Assembly: GCF_030013595.1 (NCBI RefSeq)
Contig: NZ_CP122768.1
Reading direction: 5' to 3' (one strand)
Source of the DNA: Escherichia coli
GTDB lineage: Bacteria; Pseudomonadota; Gammaproteobacteria; Enterobacterales; Enterobacteriaceae
Length of the DNA stretch: 64,000 nt
In this document: positions 2,708-35,057 of the stretch, piece by piece
How the letters are laid out: every line of letters starts with the position of its first letter
Numbering within the stretch: position 1 is the first letter of the stretch
The notes under the pieces: model-generated
Database searches by the model: none
What the model saw: the letters and a program-made list of their open reading frames with translations, nothing else
Told to the model about the DNA's origin: nothing
Made by a program: the position numbers and the translations under genes

Positions 2708-4360
2708 ATGGCACAAGTCATTAATACCAACAGCCTCTCGCTGATCACTCAAAATAATATCAACAAGAACCAGTCTGCGCTGTCGAGTTCTATCGAGCGT
2801 CTGTCTTCTGGCTTGCGTATTAACAGCGCGAAGGATGACGCCGCAGGTCAGGCGATTGCTAACCGTTTTACTTCTAATATTAAAGGCCTGACTCAGGCTG
2901 CACGTAACGCCAACGACGGTATTTCTGTTGCACAGACCACCGAAGGCGCGCTGTCCGAAATCAACAACAACTTACAGCGTATTCGTGAACTGACGGTTCA
3001 GGCTTCTACCGGGACTAACTCTGATTCGGATCTGGACTCCATTCAGGACGAAATCAAATCCCGTCTGGACGAAATTGACCGCGTATCCGGTCAAACCCAG
3101 TTCAACGGTGTGAACGTACTGGCGAAAGACGGTTCGATGAAAATTCAGGTTGGTGCGAACGATGGCCAGACTATCACTATCGACCTGAAAAAAATTGACT
3201 CTGATACGCTGGGGCTGAGTGGGTTTAATGTGAATGGTGGCGGTTCTGTCGCTAACACTGCTGCATCTAAAGCTGACTTGGTAGCTGCTAATGCAACTGT
3301 GGTCGGCAACAAATATACTGTGAGTGCGGGTTACGATGCTGCTAAAGCGTCTGATTTGCTGGCTGGAGTTAGTGATGGTGATACTGTTCAGGCAACCATT
3401 AATAACGGCTTCGGAACGGCGGCTAGTGCAACGAATTACAAGTATGATAGTGCAAGTAAGTCTTACTCTTTTGATACCACAACGGCTTCAGCTGCCGATG
3501 TTCAGAAATATTTGACCCCAGGTGTTGGTGATACCGCTAAGGGCACTATTACTATCGATGGTTCTGCACAGGATGTTCAGATCAGTAGTGATGGTAAAAT
3601 TACGGCAAGCAATGGAGATAAACTCTACATTGATACAACTGGGCGCTTAACGAAAAACGGCTCTGGTGCATCTTTGACTGAGGCTAGTCTGTCCACACTT
3701 GCAGCCAATGATACCAAAGCGACAACCATTGACATCGGCGGTACCTCTATCTCCTTTACCGGTAATAGTACTACGCCGGACACTATTACTTATTCAGTAA
3801 CAGGTGCAAAAGTTGATCAGGCAGCTTTCGATAAAGCTGTATCAACCTCTGGAAACAATGTTGATTTCACTACCGCAGGTTATAGCGTAAACGGCACAAC
3901 TGGCGCTGTAACAAAAGGTGGTAATTCGGTTTATGTTGATAACAACGGGGCGTTGACCACATCTGATACTGTAGATTTTTACCTACAGGATGATGGTTCA
4001 GTGACTAACGGCAGCGGTAAGGCAGTTTATAAAGATGCTGACGGTAAATTGACGACAGATGCTGAAACAAAAGCAGCTACGACAGCCGATCCCCTGAAAG
4101 CTCTGGACGAAGCCATCAGCTCCATCGACAAATTCCGCTCCTCCCTCGGTGCCGTTCAAAACCGTCTGGATTCTGCGGTGACCAACCTGAACAACACCAC
4201 TACCAACCTGTCTGAAGCGCAGTCCCGTATTCAGGACGCCGACTATGCGACCGAAGTGTCCAATATGTCGAAAGCGCAGATCATTCAGCAGGCCGGTAAC
4301 TCCGTGCTGGCAAAAGCTAACCAGGTACCGCAGCAGGTTCTGTCTCTGCTGCAGGGTTAA
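2708..4360 (+). CDS. fliC: Flagellin (550 aa; conserved N/C termini, divergent central domain)
   Basis: N-terminus [55 protein letters not shown] and C-terminus ...[11 protein letters not shown] are canonical flagellin; middle is Thr/Ser/Gly-rich variable region. Confidence 0.9.
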
Positions 4361-14349: not shown

Positions 14350-14425
<76 letters not shown>

Positions 14426-14479
14426 GTTTAAAAGGCATCGGCGTCAAGCGGATGTCTGGCTGAAAGGCCTGAAGAATTT

Positions 14480-14553
14480 GGCGCGTTAACAAAGCGGTTA
14501 TGTAGCGGATTGCAAATCCGTCTAGTCCGGTTCGACTCCGGAACGCGCCTCCA
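14480..14553 (+). tRNA. cysT: tRNA-Cys (GCA)
   Basis: GGCGCGTTAACAAAGCGGTTATGTAGCGGATTGCAAATCCGTCTAGTCCGGTTCGACTCCGGAACGCGCCTCCA read directly. Confidence 0.92.
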
Positions 14554-14565
14554 CTTTCTTCCCGA

Positions 14566-14652
14566 GCCCGGATGGTGGAATCGGTAGACACAAGGGATTT
14601 AAAATCCCTCGGCGTTCGCGCTGTGCGGGTTCAAGTCCCGCTCCGGGTACCA
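14566..14652 (+). tRNA. leuZ: tRNA-Leu (TAA), long-variable-arm type; 3' part lies inside prophage attL
   Basis: GCCCGGATGGTGGAATCGGTAGACACAAGGGATTTAAAATCCC...GGTTCAAGTCCCGCTCCGGGTACCA read directly. Confidence 0.92.
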
Positions 14653-14722
14653 TGGGAAAGATGAGAATAAAATCAAAGCAATAAGCAGTGTCGTGAAACC
14701 ACCTTCGGGTGGTTTTTTTGTG
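14597..14722. repeat. Prophage attL: 126-bp direct repeat (3' 56 nt of tRNA-Leu plus downstream terminator)
   Basis: Same 126 bp at 60374..60499 with one mismatch (gatgaga vs gataaga); flanks differ on both sides. Confidence 0.85.
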
Positions 14723-14782
14723 TCTTCTTTCTCATTTCCGAAGATGCGTCCGAAGATGATTTTTCTCTGGACGCATCATCAT

Positions 14783-15826
14783 TCATTTTCTCTGGCCACC
14801 AACTACGGGCACTACTTTAACTTTTCGGTCATATGCTGCTGTCTGTCGTGGGTTCTTATGCCCGGAAATTGCTTGCTTCTCTTCCAGGCTGCCTTCCAGA
14901 TCAGAGATACCTTTTGCTTTCAGATCATGAAATGTGAAGTCTATTTGCAGATGAGGATATTTTTCCTGTGCTGCCGCTTTGACATCACGCCAACGAGAGT
15001 TAAAACCATCACGGGTGTACTTGCCTCCGGTAGTTTGATGAATCACAAACAGGCTACTGATTCCCGGTTTTAATGGCAGAGAACGAGCCAGAGCTATCGC
15101 TTTCTGCAGACGAGGCGACCAGGCTTTGATTTGCTTAACGCCGGTTTTTCCCTGACGAATGTAGATCCCGGAATCGAACAGCTGGTCTTTCTGTAATGAA
15201 AGTACATCACTCTGTCTGGCCACACATAAGTAGGCAATCTCCATTGCCACGCGAACAACATCAGGAGACACTTCATAAACGGCCTGATATTCTTCATCCG
15301 TAATATAACGTTCGCGTGCTGTCTCTTTAAACTGCTTAACTCCCTGACAAGGATTCCTCTGGACATAACCTCGTTCATAACCCCAACGGAATACCCTGGA
15401 CATAAAGCTTTTTTCCCTATTTGCCTGAGTTCGGCTTGATAAACCGCGTTGATCCATATAGCGCCGAATATGTTCAGGTTTGATTTTATCCGGGTCGATC
15501 TTCCCGAAGACAGGCAGAACTTTTCCGGAATATTTTGTGTAGTCTTTCCTGGTTTCGACTGCCAAATCCATAAAATCAGGGGAGGTCATGAATTGTTCCG
15601 CGAGCGCCTGAAAAGTATTTCTTTCTTTTTCGTCACCGACCGCTTTTTCATATGCCAGCCATACGGCTGATCGTGGCGCATCCAATGCGCACAGGCGTAT
15701 CGCTTTGTTATCTTTATTCCTGAATTCGTAGGCCGCTTTGCCCTGGTAAACACGAGGCGGCATCCAGTTATCTGCTGGGTTCTTTCTCTTTCCGGCCATT
15801 AAATATTGCTCCAAAATCAGGTTCAT
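14783..15826 (-). CDS. int: Prophage tyrosine integrase
   Basis: 347-aa ORF next to attL/tRNA, opposite orientation; C-terminal region (...HDLKAKGISDLEG...SGHKNPRQTAAYDRK) resembles tyrosine-recombinase catalytic region. Confidence 0.85.
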   Translation of the reverse strand: MNLILEQYLMAGKRKNPADNWMPPRVYQGKAAYEFRNKDNKAIRLCALDAPRSAVWLAYEKAVGDEKERNTFQALAEQFMTSPDFMDLAVETRKDYTKYSGKVLPVFGKIDPDKIKPEHIRRYMDQRGLSSRTQANREKSFMSRVFRWGYERGYVQRNPCQGVKQFKETARERYITDEEYQAVYEVSPDVVRVAMEIAYLCVARQSDVLSLQKDQLFDSGIYIRQGKTGVKQIKAWSPRLQKAIALARSLPLKPGISSLFVIHQTTGGKYTRDGFNSRWRDVKAAAQEKYPHLQIDFTFHDLKAKGISDLEGSLEEKQAISGHKNPRQTAAYDRKVKVVPVVGGQRK

Positions 15827-16031
15827 CTTCTTTTCGCGTCGTCACCTCCTGTAAATTGCGAAATTTTATTGGGTTCAAGAAATGGCCCCAGGTTGTTTTT
15901 GGGTGCCCGTCAGCCCTTTCCATGAAGAAAATTCCAGCCCGGCGAAGAGCCTCACATTGCTTTGATTTAAGTGGGCTTCCCGTCAGCTCGACCATTTCTT
16001 CTCTGGTGATTATGTCGTGATCGCTTTTCAT
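15768..16031 (-). CDS. Putative excisionase / small DNA-binding protein
   Basis: 87-aa ORF immediately upstream of int and overlapping its start, as for lambdoid xis; no diagnostic motif. Confidence 0.35.
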   Translation of the reverse strand: MKSDHDIITREEMVELTGSPLKSKQCEALRRAGIFFMERADGHPKTTWGHFLNPIKFRNLQEVTTRKEDEPDFGAIFNGRKEKEPSR

Positions 16032-16240: not shown

Positions 16241-16423
16241 TTATTTCTGATTAGGCGTAATCAGTTCTGGTGGGGGGAATGCCGATTTCTCCCGCGTGAC
16301 CTTAATGTTTTCTGGCAGGTGTAGCCCAAGTTCGCAGCGACTCCGTGCTTCAATAATGCCATTGGTACCATCGGCAAGTACCAGGTGAACCGCGTCACCA
16401 CGCTTTAATGTGAGTTTAAGCAT
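16241..16423 (-). CDS. Small early protein with CsrA-like sequence pattern
   Basis: 60 aa MLKLTLKRGDAV...GLHLPENIKVTREK; gapless alignment to CsrA (MLILTRRVGETL...GVNAPKEVSVHREE) conserves M1 L2 L4 T5 G9 G33 P37 V42 R44 E45. Confidence 0.3.
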   Translation of the reverse strand: MLKLTLKRGDAVHLVLADGTNGIIEARSRCELGLHLPENIKVTREKSAFPPPELITPNQK

Positions 16424-16992: not shown

Positions 16993-19214
16993 GCTGTTTG
17001 CTCCTGTGCTGCGGTGAGGGCGGTGAGGCGTTCGGTTTTGATTTCATTCAAACGGCGCAGGCGCGAACCAAGATAAGTTGAATACTCCTTATCACCTTTG
17101 GATTCTGCGGCCTTGCGGTGAACTTCTACTTCCCGCGCAATAAGGCCATAGACTTTATTAACTTCATTGGGGGTTACGGCTGCAGCCAGTGTTTTGGCAA
17201 CACCTGAGAGTCGTTCATCCAGTTCTTCACGCAGTCGGGTAGCATCCTCTGCTTTCTCGCTTGCCTTCTTAATACTGTATTCTGTATTCAGCTCGGCGGT
17301 GTAGGCACTATCGTTATGCATATCCATATAAACATCTGCCGCAAATCCCAGATGAGATAGTGCTTTGACGGTGGCATCAGTAAGAGACTTTTTGGAGGCC
17401 TCTTTTTCCATTACCAGTGCCCCTTTGTTATTTTTTGATATGTAATCCGTGTGGCCATATGACGGAATAAATCCTTTCACTCCGTTCCAGATGTACCAGA
17501 GATCTATCCGGATGGTGTGTACTGACAGGCAGAACAGGGAACCGTCAGCATCCCTGACAGGTTTTTGTCCAATAATTTTCCCTGTCTGATCCTGTATAGG
17601 TTCAAGTAATGGCACACCGCGATCCACTCGCTCCTCCTTGATTTCAACTCCCCAACCAATGCCTTCCATTCCCAGCACTTCAGTCGCACGCATCAAAATA
17701 TATTGTGCGCGTATGGAGTGCAGTCCTGCACCGTAATCATTATGTGTGACATACGCAGGATCGGTCCGCTGAACGCGATTCCAGATAGCCAAATTTGCTT
17801 TGCTCTGGTCATCATTCATTGCTGACAGATAATGCTCCATGCGAATTGATGCAGTTTTTTCCTCGGCATGGGGCGGCTCAACCAGCGCGTCAACGTTCTG
17901 CACCAGGTCTTTTACCTGCTCGCTAAGTTTTTCTTGTGGAGGAGTCTCTTCTGCCGGGGTAATAGCTGCAGGTTCCCTCTGTGATACGGCGTTATTTTCA
18001 GGTACGTCATACACATGGCGAGGCGTGACAAACTGCTCACGCAACTGCTGCAAACTACGTTCTCCAGCATTTGCTGCTTCGCTTTTTTCGCCCTGATTTG
18101 AGGGTGTTTCTGACATCATTCCATCAATTGAGAATCGCCCGCCGCCGTGGTTGGTGACTTTTACATCATCCTTTGGTGCTGTTTCCTTTGGCTTCTCTTC
18201 AACAGCATTTGCATCACGCTGCCCGTTAGCTTGCAGCCAGTTGTCGATGTGACTGCGCAGGGATTGCGGGAAGTGGTACGTGTCTTTTGCGGGGGCGCTC
18301 TGAATAACACCGAATACTGATGCGCGGTCATAGGCAAGGATCTGATCCGTTGTGCGCAAGGCCATTGACCAGCGTTTAAAATCCTCCCGATCCTGGCTGA
18401 TTATTTCGTCTGCCGCTTTCAGGACGCTGGGGGTGATTTTTTCCGGGCCAACGGGTAACAGGGCGCAGGCAATTTCACGATCCAGTGTGGCGTGAGTCTG
18501 TTGGTAAGGACGTGCGGATGCTGTTTCTGGTTTTACCTCCGGCAGCATTTCATCGCGTTTACCGGGATTCTCTACCCATTTTTTTATAAATTTGGAGATA
18601 GTCCAACTGGTCGGGTTTTGTTCCTGGGTATCGCAACTTGCCAAAATTGCATGTACCAGATTATTCAATCCAGCAATATGCATGTACTCGATGGGCTTAC
18701 ACGCCACCATGGCATCAAGAACGATGCGGTTAAACGCGTCAACCTCATCCTCACTGTCAGTATCACTGTTGTCGAGCATCTCCAGGTATTCACGCGTCTG
18801 CGCAAGCAATTCACTGTCGACTTCGTTGGCGTCGTGGCTGAACAGCAGGACGGCGGCGAAGCGTTCACGAGCCGGCAGTTTCATCAGGTCGTTAACCTGT
18901 GCGATATCTGCTGAACCGCTATCTGAATCAGCGGGGGTGTTAACTACCCATTTTTCGCCATCAAAACTGTGTTCTGTGGCAAACGTCTCATCAAACTCAC
19001 CGACGCCAGGGCGCGGTTGGCCCGGGGCATCTTCCCAGATTTTAGGTTTGAAATAGTTGTCGCCGTGGTCAGGGTAGGCTTCCCACAATTTGCCGATGAT
19101 GATGTTCTCGGCAACTTTTTTGTTAGGGGCGTCGATGGCGATGGCCAGCGCCGGGATCGCGCCGTTTTTGAGCGCGCCTTTTTTCGCTTCTAACAAGCCG
19201 TTAAAGATGGTCAT
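16989..19214 (-). CDS. Large early protein with C-terminal Erf/Rad52-type single-strand annealing domain (tentative)
   Basis: 741-aa ORF, RBS GAGGAAAGACCA before ATG; C-terminal ...KEASKKSLTDATVKALSHLGFAADVY resembles the Erf signature; N-terminal ~450 aa acidic, unrecognised. Confidence 0.5.
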   Translation of the reverse strand: MTIFNGLLEAKKGALKNGAIPALAIAIDAPNKKVAENIIIGKLWEAYPDHGDNYFKPKIWEDAPGQPRPGVGEFDETFATEHSFDGEKWVVNTPADSDSGSADIAQVNDLMKLPARERFAAVLLFSHDANEVDSELLAQTREYLEMLDNSDTDSEDEVDAFNRIVLDAMVACKPIEYMHIAGLNNLVHAILASCDTQEQNPTSWTISKFIKKWVENPGKRDEMLPEVKPETASARPYQQTHATLDREIACALLPVGPEKITPSVLKAADEIISQDREDFKRWSMALRTTDQILAYDRASVFGVIQSAPAKDTYHFPQSLRSHIDNWLQANGQRDANAVEEKPKETAPKDDVKVTNHGGGRFSIDGMMSETPSNQGEKSEAANAGERSLQQLREQFVTPRHVYDVPENNAVSQREPAAITPAEETPPQEKLSEQVKDLVQNVDALVEPPHAEEKTASIRMEHYLSAMNDDQSKANLAIWNRVQRTDPAYVTHNDYGAGLHSIRAQYILMRATEVLGMEGIGWGVEIKEERVDRGVPLLEPIQDQTGKIIGQKPVRDADGSLFCLSVHTIRIDLWYIWNGVKGFIPSYGHTDYISKNNKGALVMEKEASKKSLTDATVKALSHLGFAADVYMDMHNDSAYTAELNTEYSIKKASEKAEDATRLREELDERLSGVAKTLAAAVTPNEVNKVYGLIAREVEVHRKAAESKGDKEYSTYLGSRLRRLNEIKTERLTALTAAQEQTA

Positions 19215-19244
19215 TGGTCTTTCCTCATTACAGGTCAGTGGTCT

Positions 19245-19565
19245 TTAGTAGGGGATTTCATCAGTATCTGGCGTGTATTCGATGCAAAGTAACTGCTGGA
19301 TTTTGTCATCGATAGCAGCAATACGCTGTTGGGCGTCGGCGACTGTTTTCTGTTTTTGCTCATACAGCTGCTCGACCTGCAAACCGATGATGTCGATTGG
19401 CTGGGGCTGGTTGACGGTAATTTCAATTTCGCGGCTTTCCAGAAGGATGTACCTGTCTGGAAAATTTTTTGACATATCAACAGTCGCAACAAGCAGCTTT
19501 TCGTGGCTGAAAGTTGAAGTTGCATAATTAATAAAGAGTGTTACTGGGATGGTGCGCGCTTCCAT
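19245..19565 (-). CDS. Hypothetical early-left operon protein
   Basis: 106-aa ORF with AAGGAG RBS; first gene after the ORF-poor leader. Confidence 0.45.
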   Translation of the reverse strand: MEARTIPVTLFINYATSTFSHEKLLVATVDMSKNFPDRYILLESREIEITVNQPQPIDIIGLQVEQLYEQKQKTVADAQQRIAAIDDKIQQLLCIEYTPDTDEIPY

Positions 19566-20416
19566 AGCGACTCCTTGGTGATGTATACTCGGGACCGATC
19601 AGCGAATATTGATCAGCTTCCATAGCGTCAGTGTCGTTGGTCTTTCCTCATCACAAGTTTGGTCACTTGTGATAAATCCGAATGGTTTGGTCGCCGTTCG
19701 GGGTAACTGGCCCGCCTTGTGCGGGTCTTTTGCTATCTAAAGGGTGCCGGTTACGTTTCCGGCGTCGTTATGTTTCCATCACGACCGTACGGGGCTGGTC
19801 TTTCCTGTTTTGAGCTGGTCAGGCTCATGGTCAACGCTGGTCAGGCGTGGTACTTCCTCCGGTCTTTCCCTGGTGTCACGCTGCGGGTTTGGCCTCTCCT
19901 GTTGGGGACTCAGGCACAGCGATAAAACCTGGCTGTGTGAAAAAATGGCCCATCGTGCGGACTGGGCAAAGGCTAAACACAGCAAATTGATGATGGGCGC
20001 CCGGAATCGAACCGGGTAACGGGCAGGGAGTTCCCGTTAAACACCTGTTCACCACAACCGGGAGCGCACTCCGCCATTTCAAAATTTAACGACAAAGCTC
20101 AAAGTTGAGTCGATGAAGTGCGCTCTCGTGTTGTAGCCAGGACTCTTCCCTGGTGGTCACACCGTATCGCCTTGATGGTGAATCAATCGCTCATACCTGG
20201 CTGTGGCTTGCACATTCCGGCTAGCTGCTATGGAGACAACGCGTTAAGGCTCCGCTTCCATCCAGACCGCTTCGACACATGTGCCATATGCCGGCGAAGT
20301 CTTTCCCTCTGTCATCGTGTTGGCGCCGACGCGCAAAATTTGATGCCGTCTTTCCGGCTGTCAGAACGTGTTTCTGAACAACTGCCGCTGGGTAAGCGTT
20401 GTTGATGAAAGTGACT

Positions 20417-20436
20417 TTACAATTTGTATTTGTAAT
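20417..20436. promoter_or_regulatory. Putative left operator (OL-like) palindrome
   Basis: ttacaatttgtatttgtaat with TTACAA / TTGTAA half-sites, same half-site as at 21010..21048 on the other side of the repressor gene. Confidence 0.4.
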
Positions 20437-20561
20437 GGTCAACGTATTTTTAAAAAATAATTTGTAGTTAGGGGCAAAAAAATATTCACTGTGTAAAGGT
20501 GTTTTTGTGTTAGGGGGAAAGTTGCATGCCAGCAGCGGCTGGCCTGGAAATTTGAACTGAA

Positions 20562-20975
20562 CTATTTTGTCTGGTTTTTGGCTTCAAGTAGTTCTTTTAG
20601 CAGTAGATCGAAGTGCTCTCTTTTTTCTTTTAGCTCATTGATTAATTTATTTTTTTCGCTCTCAGGCAGTCCTCTGAATAGTTGCAGTAGAGCCTGTTCT
20701 TGCGGGGTTAGTTCTTGATTGTAATTACCCGGGTGTAGCGTGGATTCATCCAAATATTCACCTTCATTCATGAAGAAAAAATGAACAGGGTATCCGGTCA
20801 CTTTTGCTAGCTTGTCTAATTTATCTTTTCTTGGAGTTACCCCATTACACCATGCCTGAACTGATTGAGCCGTAACCCCAATATGGCGAGCTAACTCAGA
20901 TTGAGACCAGCCTAAGTCTTTTAGAATCCGTTGTAGTCGGCTAGCAAAAGCCATGTTTTTCGTTTTTGTGTTCAT
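20562..20975 (-). CDS. Prophage repressor (CI/RacR-like, XRE-family HTH)
   Basis: HTH LGWSQSELARHIGVTAQSVQAWCNG; divergent from cro-like gene; exact start uncertain (track ORF extends to 20990 with TTG). Confidence 0.6.
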   Translation of the reverse strand: MNTKTKNMAFASRLQRILKDLGWSQSELARHIGVTAQSVQAWCNGVTPRKDKLDKLAKVTGYPVHFFFMNEGEYLDESTLHPGNYNQELTPQEQALLQLFRGLPESEKNKLINELKEKREHFDLLLKELLEAKNQTK

Positions 20976-21009
20976 ACCGTAAGGATACAAGGTTTAATTG
21001 TAGGGAGCA

Positions 21010-21048
21010 TTGCAAATATAATTTGTAATTACAGTTATGATTTGTAAT
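21010..21048. promoter_or_regulatory. Putative right operator region (OR-like) between repressor and cro-like gene
   Basis: ttgcaaatataatttgtaa palindrome plus a second atttgtaat half-site. Confidence 0.45.
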
Positions 21049-21073
21049 GATGGCGCGGACACAAGGAGTCCAT

Positions 21074-21304
21074 ATGGATAAACAACTGCAAGACAAAATT
21101 CTTTCCGTAATGAGTCAATCCGAGTTAGGGCGGCGATTAGGGAAAAAACCACAAACGGTAAGCCTCTGGTTCAAAGGAAGGGTTCCCGGTGAAGAGGTTT
21201 TGCGCACATCTGAAGCTCTTGAATGGCGCGTGACCCCCCATGATCTTAGACCGGATCTTTACCCAAACCCAGATGACAGCTTGCCTAAAACGAAAGCAGC
21301 TTAA
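21074..21304 (+). CDS. Cro/YdaS-like HTH regulator
   Basis: AAGGAG RBS before MDKQLQDKIL...; HTH SQSELGRRLGKKPQTVSLWFKG; divergent from repressor. Confidence 0.55.
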   Translation: MDKQLQDKILSVMSQSELGRRLGKKPQTVSLWFKGRVPGEEVLRTSEALEWRVTPHDLRPDLYPNPDDSLPKTKAA

Positions 21305-21362
21305 CTGTTGGTGAGCCCCAAATCTGATTAAGCGTAATCAATTTTTAGCGACAGGAGACGCT

Positions 21363-21839
21363 ATGGAAAACCAAGAGGAATTACAAAAAGAGATTTTGAC
21401 CTGGGCGGCAAGGGCAGGGCAGGAACTCGTCACGATTGAAATCTGCCGGGCCTGGTTCAGTCAGGGACGCAATGATGAGTTGAGACTACATGAATTTGAG
21501 GACGCGGACGGCAATGTGGACTGGAGAGCCATCAACAACAATCGGCAGAAAATCTTTCGCTGGTTACGTGGCGAGACAACGGCGGCGCGCCGAAAAACTC
21601 AGGTGCTGGCCAGTGTGATGAAAGCCGTGCTACCCGCAGAACGGCGGGCGCGTCTGGAGTCGCCGGGCGATCCCGTTTTGCTGGCAACGCTGGCGGCAAA
21701 AGAAGGGGTGGAAGCGATTAACGCTGTACATCTCCACTTCGCGCCAGAGATAACTATTCAGGAAATTGACGAAGCAATAGCGGCGCTGGTAGCGACGCGA
21801 GGGGCAGTGATAAGCACTGCGCAAGGCCATCATGCATGA
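21363..21839 (+). CDS. YdaT-like / CII-like early regulator
   Basis: 158 aa; ...NRQKIFRWLRGET... resembles Rac YdaT as I recall; position after cro. Confidence 0.45.
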   Translation: MENQEELQKEILTWAARAGQELVTIEICRAWFSQGRNDELRLHEFEDADGNVDWRAINNNRQKIFRWLRGETTAARRKTQVLASVMKAVLPAERRARLESPGDPVLLATLAAKEGVEAINAVHLHFAPEITIQEIDEAIAALVATRGAVISTAQGHHA

Positions 21840-26649: not shown

Positions 26650-26976
26650 ATGACTAAAAATACTCGTTTTTCCCCCGAAGTCCGTCAGCGGGCGATTCGT
26701 ATGGTTCTGGAAAGTCAGGATGAATATGACTCACAGTGGGCGGCAATTTGTTCCATTGCCCCAAAGATTGGCTGTACGCCGGAGACTCTGCGTGTCTGGG
26801 TTCGCCAGCATGAGCGGGATACCGGGGGCGGTGATGGTGGGCTCACCAGCGCTGAACGTCAGCGTCTGAAAGAGCTGGAACGTGAAAATCGTGAACTGCG
26901 CCGCAGTAACGATATCCTTCGCCAGGCTTCCGCTTATTTTGCGAAGGCGGAGTTCGACCGCCTCTGGAAAAAATGA
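26650..26976 (+). CDS. IS3-family transposase OrfA (HTH)
   Basis: [41 protein letters not shown]...; ends in AAAAAATGA frameshift window (A-run 26968-26973). Confidence 0.85.
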
Positions 26977-27863
26977 TGCCACTGCTGGATAAGCTGCGTG
27001 AGCAGTACGGGGTCGGACCGGTATGTAGCGAACTGCATATTGCCCCGTCAACGTATTACCATTGTCAGCAACAGCGACATCATCCGGATAAACGCAGTGC
27101 CCGTGCGCAGCACGATGACTGGCTGAAGAAAGAGATACAGCGCGTATACGATGAAAATCACCAGGTATACGGTGTGCGTAAAGTCTGGCGTCAGTTGTTA
27201 CGGGAAGGTATCAGAGTGGCCAGATGCACTGTGGCACGTCTCATGGCAGTTATGGGACTTGCCGGTGTTCTCCGGGGTAAAAAGGTCCGCACTACCGTCA
27301 GCCGGAAAGCCGTTGCCGCAGGCGACCGCGTAAACCGTCAGTTCGTGGCAGAACGACCTGACCAGCTGTGGGTGGCTGATTTTACTTACGTCAGCACATG
27401 GCAGGGCTTCGTCTATGTGGCGTTTATCATTGATGTGTTTGCCGGATACATCGTGGGGTGGCGGGTCTCATCGTCTATGGAAACGACATTCGTGCTGGAT
27501 GCGCTGGAGCAGGCGTTGTGGGCCCGTCGTCCGTCTGGCACCATCCATCACAGCGATAAAGGCTCTCAGTATGTGTCACTGGCCTATACGGAGCGACTAA
27601 AAGAAGCCGGATTACTGGCATCAACAGGGAGTACAGGCGACTCGTATGACAACGCGATGGCTGAGAGCATCAATGGTCTTTACAAAGCGGAGGTAATACA
27701 CCGTAAGAGCTGGAAAAAACGTGCAGAAGTGGAACTGGCCACACTAACGTGGGTGGACTGGTATAACAATCGACGATTGCTGGGAAGGCTGGGCCATACT
27801 CCTCCGGCAGAAGCAGAAAAAGCTTATTATGCTTCCATCGGAAACGATGATCTGGCAGCCTGA
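26973..27863 (+). CDS. IS3-family transposase OrfB (DDE catalytic domain), -1 frame relative to OrfA
   Basis: 296 aa with DDE integrase-core-like region (...[31 protein letters not shown]...[10 protein letters not shown]...[15 protein letters not shown]). Confidence 0.85.
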
Positions 27864-29436: not shown

Positions 29437-30027
29437 ATGTTAAATGAATTTAAGGAAAAGCTACTATCCGACGATATCCGCGATGTCTACCAACGATACC
29501 TTTTAGGACATGACATCTGGTATTTTCGGGAACAAAAAAAATCAATAACCTTTGCTAAAGATTATGATGAGTTTAAGCTATATATGTCTAAGAAGCTTGA
29601 AATTCATGTAAATAATATTGCAATTGTTGGAAGTGCTAAGATGGGATTCAGCTTGAGCCCTGATAAAAATTATCGAACATTTAACGATGAGTCAGATATA
29701 GACTTGGTTTTAGTATCCGACAGAATTTATAAATCTTCCTGGATGGCATTTATTGAATTACAATCAAAGAATTATTTGCCTGTATATGCTCCTGTAGCTA
29801 AAAATATTTTCAAAGGATTCGTGTCATTGAAGGAGTTAGATATTAGAGTCGATTTTTTTAATAAATGGTCCCGTAACGTTGAACCATTAAAAAAAGACAT
29901 TCAAACTATTTTTGGAATACCTAACGACATCAACTACAGAATTTATGACTCTTGGGAGTCCGTTGAACGCTATCACATAGCTGGGTTGAATAGTCTAAAA
30001 GATAAGTTACAAGGACAATTGATATGA
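29437..30027 (+). CDS. Nucleotidyltransferase-fold protein (Pol-beta superfamily signature), function unknown
   Basis: IAIVGSAKMGFSLSPDKNYRTFNDESDIDLVLVSD = hG[GS]...[DE]hDh motif; AT-rich; stop overlaps next start (ATGA); track ORF begins at TTG 29413. Confidence 0.5.
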   Translation: MLNEFKEKLLSDDIRDVYQRYLLGHDIWYFREQKKSITFAKDYDEFKLYMSKKLEIHVNNIAIVGSAKMGFSLSPDKNYRTFNDESDIDLVLVSDRIYKSSWMAFIELQSKNYLPVYAPVAKNIFKGFVSLKELDIRVDFFNKWSRNVEPLKKDIQTIFGIPNDINYRIYDSWESVERYHIAGLNSLKDKLQGQLI

Positions 30028-31082
30028 GAGCTATTGATCTAATTAAAGTTGAATCGAAAGACATTAAATGGTTGACGGATAATTTGAAATCAGGTGTTAT
30101 TACAGTTGATAATTCATATCAGAGAAAATATATCTGGCAGCAAAAAGACCAAGTGGCCTTAATTGAGACAATATTAATTGGCTACCCAATCCCTGAGATT
30201 TACCTTTGGGCAAATAATACTGATCCTGACACTGGAGATACTAAATATTCAATTGTAGATGGACAGCAAAGGCTAACCACAATCCAGCGATATTTAAATG
30301 ATGAGTTTAAGTTAAGCAAAGCAGCTATAGATGATAAAGAAGCCGACTATAGTGGGAAAATTTTTTCAGAATTGTCGGCAGATAACAAACGTGATTTTTG
30401 GCGATACCAATTCTCATCCAGATTTATTAATGAATCATTGAGATATGATGAGATTGCAAAGTTATTTTTACGTCTAAATAGAACAAATACTACGTTAAAT
30501 CCTCAAGAACTTCGTAATGCTGAATTTAATGGCGAGTTTTTAAGATTAGCCGAAGAAATTGCACAAAATGAATTTTGGGATAATTATAAGATATTTACTC
30601 AGTCAGATATCCGTCGGATGCAAGACATTCAATTCATCAGCACATTATTGATTTTCTTACGAATGGGTATTGAGCAGGATAATACACAAAAATCAATTAA
30701 TCGAGTGTATGATCAATACAATGAGAATTACCCTGAGGCGACTGAGGACAGAATTATCTTTAACGAAGTGTTAAGGATCATATCTCAAATTATCAACAAT
30801 AAACAAGTATTAGAATCAGTTGTAAAGAAAAAAGGCCATTTGTATTTTATATTTGTGCTGGCATACTATTATTTACAGCTTAGTAAATCTAAGCTTGTTG
30901 ATATGAATGTTATTAGTTCAAAGCTCGAGGATTTTTTTAATATTTATGAGTTAAATGAACAAGATAACCCCCATCCACTGGTTGAGGAATATAGATTCCT
31001 CAGCCAAGAGGGTTCAAAGAAGAGTCATAACAGACAGCGTAGATTTGATATTTTGAAAGAATTTTGCTCTTTACATGATTAA
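30024..31082 (+). CDS. DUF262 / ParB-like protein (GmrS-type N-domain only, no DUF1524/HNH half)
   Basis: YQRKYIW...IVDGQQRLTTI and ...LNRTNTTLNPQELRNAEF motifs typical of DUF262; 352 aa; AT-rich. Confidence 0.6.
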   Translation: MRAIDLIKVESKDIKWLTDNLKSGVITVDNSYQRKYIWQQKDQVALIETILIGYPIPEIYLWANNTDPDTGDTKYSIVDGQQRLTTIQRYLNDEFKLSKAAIDDKEADYSGKIFSELSADNKRDFWRYQFSSRFINESLRYDEIAKLFLRLNRTNTTLNPQELRNAEFNGEFLRLAEEIAQNEFWDNYKIFTQSDIRRMQDIQFISTLLIFLRMGIEQDNTQKSINRVYDQYNENYPEATEDRIIFNEVLRIISQIINNKQVLESVVKKKGHLYFIFVLAYYYLQLSKSKLVDMNVISSKLEDFFNIYELNEQDNPHPLVEEYRFLSQEGSKKSHNRQRRFDILKEFCSLHD

Positions 31083-34730: not shown

Positions 34731-34877
34731 TAACCATAAACCGTTTTTTCCGGGAATAAACCGTTTAATCAAATTCACGCGGTGAATATAATTGCTCATT
34801 ATTCCCCCATTGCATTTGATGTTATGACATACGATAAAAAATACTGTATATATACAGGGTTTCTGTCAGGGGGAAAT

Positions 34878-35057
34878 ATGAACACACACGAGGCGATCAG
34901 CAAATTACCGGATACGTGCCGGGCTGTAATCAAACGAGAAGAGGGGCGCGTAGTGATTGTACGCGTCCTCAGCGACGACGAGCGGATTGCCAGCCTGCTG
35001 GCGTTTCTCGAGTTGGCAGAAACAGCTGGATATACTATTACACCCCCTGACGCGTAA
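34878..35057 (+). CDS. Hypothetical small protein (59 aa)
   Basis: Internal ATG with GGGGGA RBS. Confidence 0.3.
   Translation: MNTHEAISKLPDTCRAVIKREEGRVVIVRVLSDDERIASLLAFLELAETAGYTITPPDA

Follow-up and report, generated by a model that had tools for sequence, protein, structure and literature searches.

Closest described systems and layout of the locus

The described immunity regions closest to the one analysed here are those of prophage CP-933P of Escherichia coli O157:H7 and the Rac prophage of K-12, and the repressor also resembles those of the Gifsy phages of Salmonella. In CP-933P, the gene for a short repressor diverges from that for a YdaS-type Cro, which is followed by a YdaT-type CII (PMC8630535, PMC9986795). 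Several OR dyads overlap PR and PRM, and an OL/PL set lies downstream of the repressor operon (PMC8630535). The system is known for its footprinted OR repeats, its OL/PL set and a YdaT-activated PRE (PMC8630535, PMC9986795), and a YdaT palindrome, of consensus TTGATT-N6-AATCAA, lies between ydaS and ydaT (PMC9986795). Rac carries the corresponding genes for RacR, YdaS and YdaT, with three inverted repeats of 3-nt centre in the intergenic region between repressor and ydaS, of which O1 lies over the ydaS promoter and O3 where the repressor gene begins (PMC9638921, PMC5700373). The repressors of Gifsy-1, -2 and -3 (GfoR, GtgR and GfhR) are proteins of ~136-138 aa without a self-cleavage domain; they are not cleaved but are inactivated by antirepressors, and the phages are induced via a LexA-controlled dinI-antirepressor operon (PMC3121763).

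The window, by which we mean the whole 64,000-nucleotide stretch of E. coli DNA analysed, carries a prophage with the following genes and marker:

20562..20975, minus strand: repressor gene, 137 aa; N-terminal XRE helix-turn-helix and C-terminal helical hairpin, without an S24 peptidase domain
21074..21304, plus strand: cro analogue, 76 aa, YdaS family helix-turn-helix (PF15943, 35.7 bits against a cut-off of 30; phrog_35)
21324..21341, strandless: YdaT (CII-analogue) palindrome CTGATTAAGCGTAATCAA, one mismatch to the consensus; marks the right edge of the immunity module
21363..21839, plus strand: cII analogue, 158 aa, YdaT family (PF06254, 57.4 bits against a cut-off of 21; phrog_163)

As far as can be read from the sequence, this architecture matches the CP-933P/Rac type down to the YdaT palindrome, and only the operator sequence is new. 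The YdaT-family protein is annotated by PHROGs as a CII-like activator, and the palindrome at the ydaS/ydaT junction is present in all relatives of the locus. The half-site is GTTTAGTAA in CP-933P and TTACAAAT/ATTTGTAA in the window; CP-933P has four 18-bp repeats at OR where the window has three 19-bp sites, and its repressor gene is followed by the paaA2-parE2 toxin-antitoxin genes, whereas nothing follows the repressor in the window. The original prediction had proposed a comparison with Rac-like operators: the YdaS/YdaT architecture is indeed shared, but the operator sequence is not that of Rac, TTAGGC-n3-GCCTAA (PMC9638921). Rac half-sites read (T/A)TAGGC, RacR O3 overlaps the ATG, unlike its counterpart in the window (OR3 below), and no OL set has been described for Rac, in contrast to the OL1-OL2 pair found here. 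A literature search for the half-site of the window returned nothing relevant.

A second palindrome of the YdaT type (CTGATTAGGCGTAATCAG, 16247-16264), almost identical to the copy at 21324-21341, spacer included, lies ~215 bp upstream of a xis-like gene (15768-16031) and int (14783-15826). It also occurs in two of the heteroimmune loci described below (L024 and L026), and is a candidate for a CII-dependent PI analogue.

The repressor gene had been predicted to encode a protein of XRE type, in agreement with its XRE/HTH_3 family match; the family search returned helix-turn-helix families only and no S24 domain. By comparison between relatives, its true start is the upstream ATG at 20975 (137 aa) rather than the second ATG annotated in RefSeq (130 aa), because the upstream ATG is in frame in all five lineages and in the Salmonella orthologue the second reads CTA. 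The AlphaFold model (mean pLDDT 79) has a five-helix helix-turn-helix domain at residues 3-68, a disordered linker at 73-87 and a helical hairpin at 91-136. Foldseek matched it to XRE helix-turn-helix domains including those of the 434 repressor (36% identity, rmsd 1.5-1.7 Å), P22 c2 and SinR, and the closest solved sequence relative of the DNA-binding domain is again the 434 repressor (E 4.5e-5, ungapped alignment of 57 residues). A full-length alignment with the Gifsy-2 repressor gives 33% identity (E 5e-23), and the two proteins have in common a C-terminal LLxLFxxLPExEK helix that is also found in the heteroimmune L024 repressor. From these matches and the predicted fold, the repressor is to be classed as a short Gifsy-type protein without a self-cleavage domain and with a 434-like helix-turn-helix. 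The Gifsy-2 repressor gene is surrounded by repeats of GAACC/GGTTC type, unlike the dyads of the window. No sequence relative of solved structure was found for the Cro analogue.

Probable operator dyads and promoters of the proposed switch

Five copies of a dyad of the form TTACAAAT-N3-ATTTGTAA, with mismatches scored over its 16 specified positions, lie on either side of the repressor gene:

20417..20435, strandless: OL1, 19-bp dyad TTACAATTTGTATTTGTAA; occupies the pL spacer and the first 3 nt of the -10, a position kept in relatives
20449..20467, strandless: OL2, degenerate dyad TTTAAAAAATAATTTGTAG, four mismatches; 6 bp upstream of the pL -35
20985..21003, strandless: OR3, weak dyad ATACAAGGTTTAATTGTAG, five mismatches with the core TACAA-N9-TTGTA intact; overlaps the predicted PRM -10
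21010..21028, strandless: OR2, TTGCAAATATAATTTGTAA; its right half includes the predicted PR -35
21029..21047, strandless: OR1, TTACAGTTATGATTTGTAA; directly abuts OR2 and fills the predicted PR spacer

On the strength of their sequence and placement, we consider it highly probable that these five dyads act as operators in a lysis/lysogeny switch of lambda type, serving both the repressor and Cro. Their invariant core is ACAA-N7-TTGT. OR1, OR2 and OR3 fall within 20985-21047, between the divergent repressor (minus) and cro (plus) genes, and OR3 ends 10 bp upstream of the repressor ATG. Taking the A of that ATG as +1, the centres of OR3, OR2 and OR1 lie at -19, -44 and -63; those of lambda OR3, OR2 and OR1 lie at about -19, -42 and -66. 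The centre of OL2 is 32 bp from that of OL1, and both its position and the 32-33 bp spacing are the same in the Salmonella and Klebsiella relatives. OR3 and OL2 are poor matches (five and four mismatches of 16), and the case for them as operators comes mainly from positional conservation.

The exact half-site ATTTGTAA occurs five times in the 64 kb, and three of these copies lie within 631 bp (at 20428, 21021 and 21040). With up to three mismatches allowed, the full dyad occurs in the 64-kb window only at 20417-20435 (one mismatch), 21010-21028 (one) and 21029-21047 (two), against 0.51 matches per window expected by chance; at least three matches were obtained in 2 of 100 shuffles. Since the motif is AT-rich and located in AT-rich intergenic DNA, a local null was restricted to the intergenic stretches 20400-20561 and 20976-21073 (63-65% A+T). 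Dinucleotide shuffles of these (n = 5000) gave a mean of 0.0028 sites at up to two mismatches, and in none of the 5000 were there three sites. In both counts the consensus had been built from the very sites then counted.

The original prediction had placed palindromes with a shared half-site on both sides of the repressor gene, and their coordinates were right to within 1 bp; its assignment of the right-hand set to the divergent repressor/cro promoter region likewise agrees with the positions of genes and sites. The set of sites it proposed stands for the three strong dyads and has to be extended by the two weaker, position-conserved ones that it missed (20449-20467 and 20985-21003).

The promoters to which the dyads are referred are as follows:

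20414..20442, minus strand: pL, with TTGACC (20442..20437), a 17-bp spacer and TAAAGT (20419..20414); predicted start ~20407/20406
21023..21051, plus strand: predicted PR, read from the sequence, with TTGTAA (21023-21028), a 17-bp spacer and AATGAT (21046-21051)
21010-21015 and 21033-21038, plus strand: alternative placement of PR, with TTGCAA, a 17-bp spacer and AGTTAT
20982..20987, minus strand: predicted PRM -10, TATCCT, separated from the ATG by 6 nt

A promoter scan of 19200-21500 found pL as the sole sigma-70-like promoter, and its hexamers are kept in relatives (-35 TTGACC or TTGACG; -10 TAAAGT, TAGAGT or TAGATT). It points into a leader of ~840 nt and then into an operon of exonuclease, Gp157, xis and int. 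Because the left-hand site lies inside a sigma-70-like promoter pointing away from the repressor gene, that site with its promoter is the pL/OL analogue. The PR and PRM hexamers were placed by eye; they are conserved in relatives, and their match to sigma-70 falls short of what the promoter scan required. For PR, the relatives retain the pattern TTGYAW-17-AATNAT, and the predicted PR mirrors pL in having an operator in its spacer. Under either placement of PR, it is covered by OR1 and OR2.

Read in the orientation of the repressor gene, the order is OR1, OR2, TGCTCC and OR3, with OR3 overlapping TATCCT. Five lineages share AAACCTTGTATCCT-N6-ATG without change except in the 6 nt, which vary, and a Shine-Dalgarno sequence is absent upstream of the repressor ATG. 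From this arrangement we infer TATCCT to be the PRM -10 and the repressor mRNA to be leaderless, as is that of lambda cI. A leaderless mRNA has been shown experimentally for paaR2 of CP-933P (PMC8630535). The window contains no terminator-like site between the repressor stop codon and pL, so that PRM transcripts may read into the pL leader.

The working of the switch that we infer from these positions concerns binding itself, the transcription starts, the order in which sites fill, PRM activation and looping. Dimers of the 137-aa repressor would recognise TTACAAAT-N3-ATTTGTAA, as probably would dimers of the YdaS-like Cro. With OR1 and OR2 on the spacer and -35 of the rightward cro-ydaT promoter, bound repressor would shut off PR, and repressor at OR2, at about -44 from the repressor start, could activate the weak, leaderless PRM. 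The weak OR3 over the PRM -10 could provide negative autoregulation, or repression of PRM by Cro. On the left, a dimer at OL1 would lie between the -35 and -10 of the leftward promoter for the recombination, excision and integration operon, and one at OL2 immediately upstream of it. Neighbouring dimers may be joined by oligomerisation via the C-terminal helical hairpin, which might possibly also tie OL to OR, ~590 bp away.

Repressor types and the exchangeable immunity module

The narrow family of the repressor in the protein database consists of E. coli proteins of 99-100% identity, a Salmonella protein of 88% (P0002), a Klebsiella protein of 67% (P0006) and two others of 67-68% (P0004 and P0005). 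Across the relatives of 65-88% identity, residues 9-66, the helix-turn-helix, are near-invariant (...GWSQSE[LM]AR[HR][IV]GVTAQSVQ[AS]WC[NG]GVTPRKDK...), and the linker and tail diverge. The Cro proteins of same-type relatives are 76-82% identical, with a near-invariant helix-turn-helix. Every locus fetched with a 65-88% identical repressor (Salmonella, Klebsiella and others) has the 3+2 layout, with three OR sites spaced 19 and 25 bp start to start and two OL sites 32-33 bp apart on the pL analogue, downstream of the repressor operon. The three strong sites are present in all nine of the nine loci that have the window's repressor over at least its first 108 residues. The original prediction had named half-sites that fail to follow the repressor type as an outcome that would count against it; in the comparison as run, every locus that retains the recognition helix also retains the sites.

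The entire OR intergenic region is 85% identical among relatives, and its conservation is thus not specific to the sites. Among eight distinct E. coli sequences, variation was found at 1 of 80 specified site positions and at 8 of ~185 positions elsewhere, a difference that is not significant with so few changes. Of 5426 complete E. coli genomes, 479 carry the 1.1-kb stretch at no less than 95% identity, and a megablast search against 50,697 phage records found no match to the region at the DNA level.

In strain APEC20/16 (L001), the same immunity region is carried by a prophage adjoining tRNA-Ser and mtfA, and cro is annotated there as frameshifted; the integrase of the window prophage adjoins a tRNA-Gly/Cys/Leu cluster (tRNA-Leu at 14566-14652, in the region 14350-15826). 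In relatives (L013-L022, at ~3404-3904 of those loci), the repressor is followed by a 157-aa gene without a Pfam family, in the position of lambda rex. It was seen in all relatives that cover the stretch (Salmonella, Klebsiella and L020/L021), L022 ending at that point, and it is absent from the window (20468-20561).

Loci of another repressor type provide a second comparison. When the comparison loci were extended through the first gene of the pL operon, six heteroimmune ones (L024-L028 and L037) proved to have 95-99% protein identity to the window in cII and 93-98% in the first pL-operon gene, with a repressor only 33% identical and an unrelated cro. Dyads of the window type are absent from these six loci even at three mismatches, and TAAC-N4-GTTA occurs instead, with three copies at OR and two, 34 bp apart, at OL. 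Between the two module types, therefore, the 3+2 logic is preserved and the operator sequence is changed. The homology to L024 and L026 extends as far as 20410 and begins again at 21322, shortly ahead of the YdaT palindrome; these two points delimit the unit that is exchanged:

20411..21321 (911 bp), strandless: exchangeable immunity module, with repressor, cro and all five operators, from about pL +1 to just past cro

Directly visible in the sequences are the dyads, their symmetry, their placement relative to genes and promoter-like hexamers, their positional conservation among relatives, and their co-variation with the type of repressor and cro. The co-variation agrees with the immunity specificity that had been ascribed to the half-site, in that the sites are missing, and another palindrome is found instead, where repressor and cro have been swapped in a near-identical backbone.

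The swap also bears on what the dyads are. One alternative is that the half-sites are mainly -35-like hexamers (TTGTAA and TTGCAA) in AT-rich DNA and their palindromy is incidental, with the repressor binding elsewhere or at some of the sites. Both hexamers resemble TTGACA, one of them is the predicted PR -35, and the promoters are exchanged along with the operators in the swap, so that the missing sites alone cannot separate the two roles. However, pL has a distinct -35 of its own, TTGACC, and OL1 occupies the spacer, whose sequence RNA polymerase does not read; the 19-bp dyad symmetry recurs five times with its N3 centre fixed, and shuffles of the AT-rich DNA never reproduce the sites. The heteroimmune module, moreover, has a palindrome of its own that is unlike a -35 and recurs in the same 3+2 layout. 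We regard an origin as promoter elements as very improbable.

A second alternative accepts the dyads as operators but assigns them to one regulator only, either the repressor or the YdaS-like Cro, the other binding different or overlapping repeats. This would be in keeping with the CP-933P footprints, which hold both inverted repeats and pseudosymmetric 'operators' (PMC8630535), and with the report that Rac YdaS does not repress racR (PMC9638921); here, too, the helix-turn-helix sequences of Cro and repressor are mutually dissimilar. Nevertheless, no second repeat family common to OR and OL was detected in 19500-21100, and repressor and Cro are swapped together with the sites, and we think division of the two regulators between different repeats improbable, though less so than incidental palindromy. 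With the dyads taken as operators common to both proteins, the locus is very probably an ordinary lambda-style switch with a previously undescribed DNA specificity.

The operators of phage 434 have the form ACAA-N6-TTGT (14 bp), with ACAA...TTGT as the outer bases. The window operators have the same ACAA...TTGT, in their case as an ACAA-N7-TTGT core inside a 19-bp site, and the N7 rather than N6 core places the switch, 434-like as it is, outside the 434 specificity group. Gln28 and Gln33 of the 434 repressor align with Ala in the window repressor, which retains just two of the 434 contact residues, Gln29 and Ser30; the 434 repressor also has a RecA-cleavable C-terminal domain, whereas the window repressor is without one. 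The CI of Klebsiella phage ST16-OXA48phi5.1, 42% identical to the window repressor, is accompanied by ACAAG-N5-CTTGT twice at OR and by one site with an ACAA-N7-TTGT core at OL, and core and spacing are the same as in the window. The CI of Stx2_95 has a very similar recognition helix (SAQSVQYW) and is without such sites, which rules out a simple rule leading from recognition helix to half-site.

By analogy with the Gifsy phages, induction probably proceeds via an antirepressor rather than by self-cleavage. A search for LexA boxes in the 64-kb window gave 18 matches against 17.5 expected, none with fewer than two mismatches, and a LexA-controlled dinI-antirepressor operon like that of the Gifsy phages (PMC3121763) was not found there. 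The ORFs tested included no member of an antirepressor or DinI family, and the gene may be outside the window or of an unknown family.

It is conceivable, although we offer this as a speculation that may well prove wrong, that the locus represents a common, uncharacterised immunity group (479 of 5426 E. coli genomes; 0 of 50,697 phage records, at the DNA level) in which the DNA-binding head has been exchanged on a C-terminal helical domain common to the L024 type and Gifsy. Heteroimmune prophages of this clade could hence be co-induced by one shared non-LexA antirepressor. The 434-like head would read the ACAA core with a spacer 1 bp longer than that of 434.

The comparison defines an immunity specificity, an operator map and a 911-bp exchangeable module for a type of prophage present in ~9% of complete E. 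coli genomes. These can be used in predicting superinfection immunity and cross-regulation between co-resident prophages, and they supply an orthogonal repressor/operator pair for experiments, with TAAC-N4-GTTA as the heteroimmune partner. Their value is practical rather than conceptual, and the understanding of such switches is unchanged.

The pL leader and other features of the prophage

The ORF-poor leader that separates pL from the left operon's first gene (19566-20406, minus strand, ~840 nt) is a mosaic. Relatives lack or replace blocks such as 20299-19987 and 19985-19750, among others, and in some a gene (DUF6948) or ~510 bp is inserted at 20364/20340. The minus-strand leader RNA folds more stably than shuffled sequences (z -3.35).

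Repeats of GGAAAGAC in the leader were considered as boxB-like hairpins, a reading that was dropped because real genes in both early operons have this motif as their ribosome-binding context. In the form (GA)GGAAAGACC-n-ATG, often after TGACCAGCG, it precedes several early genes, at the starts 19224 and 16040 (minus strand) and 21869 and 24599 (plus strand). Six 'orphan' copies in the leader, at 20355, 20306, 20149, 19869, 19805 and 19647 (minus strand), have no ORF, and the cassette junctions fall near these copies. They look like conserved inter-gene linkers acting as mosaic joints, or remnants of lost genes.

On the pL strand, the stretch from the repressor gene to the left operon contains a single terminator-like site, a stem-loop with a U-run at 19938-19990 (minus strand; GCCCAGUCCGCACGAUGGGC CAUUUUUU), preceded by AAUUUGCUGUGUUUAGCCUUU. 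Rfam gives the segment a weak similarity to the 3' part of the sRNA RprA (34 bits, gathering score 70, E 0.13), and the 5' half of this match crosses a cassette junction. Homology to RprA was not supported by a blastn search of E. coli genomes, which returned prophage copies only and not rprA, the short query giving the search low power. At 20000-20016 (minus strand), CCCGGTTCGATTCCGGG resembles a tRNA T-arm and is followed by CGCCCA. ARAGORN called no tRNA in the pL leader; the segment may be a tRNA or attP fragment.

Further to the right in the window, a perfect palindrome (CTGTATATATACAG, 34844-34857) closely follows a promoter-like TTGCAT-17-GATAAA, and 20 bp after it begins a 59-aa ORF (34878-35057; phrog_340, function unassigned) that precedes ninB. 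The ORF matches hypothetical proteins only. As a LexA box the palindrome was rejected: its half-sites are LexA-like but their spacing is CTGT-N6-ACAG, not N8. A role as operator for a small inducible gene is possible. The replication genes are followed, at 26650-27863, by an inserted IS3-family transposase pair (HTH_Tnp_1 and rve), and a gene further right, at 30024-31082, has a GmrSD N-terminal domain and is probably a defence gene.
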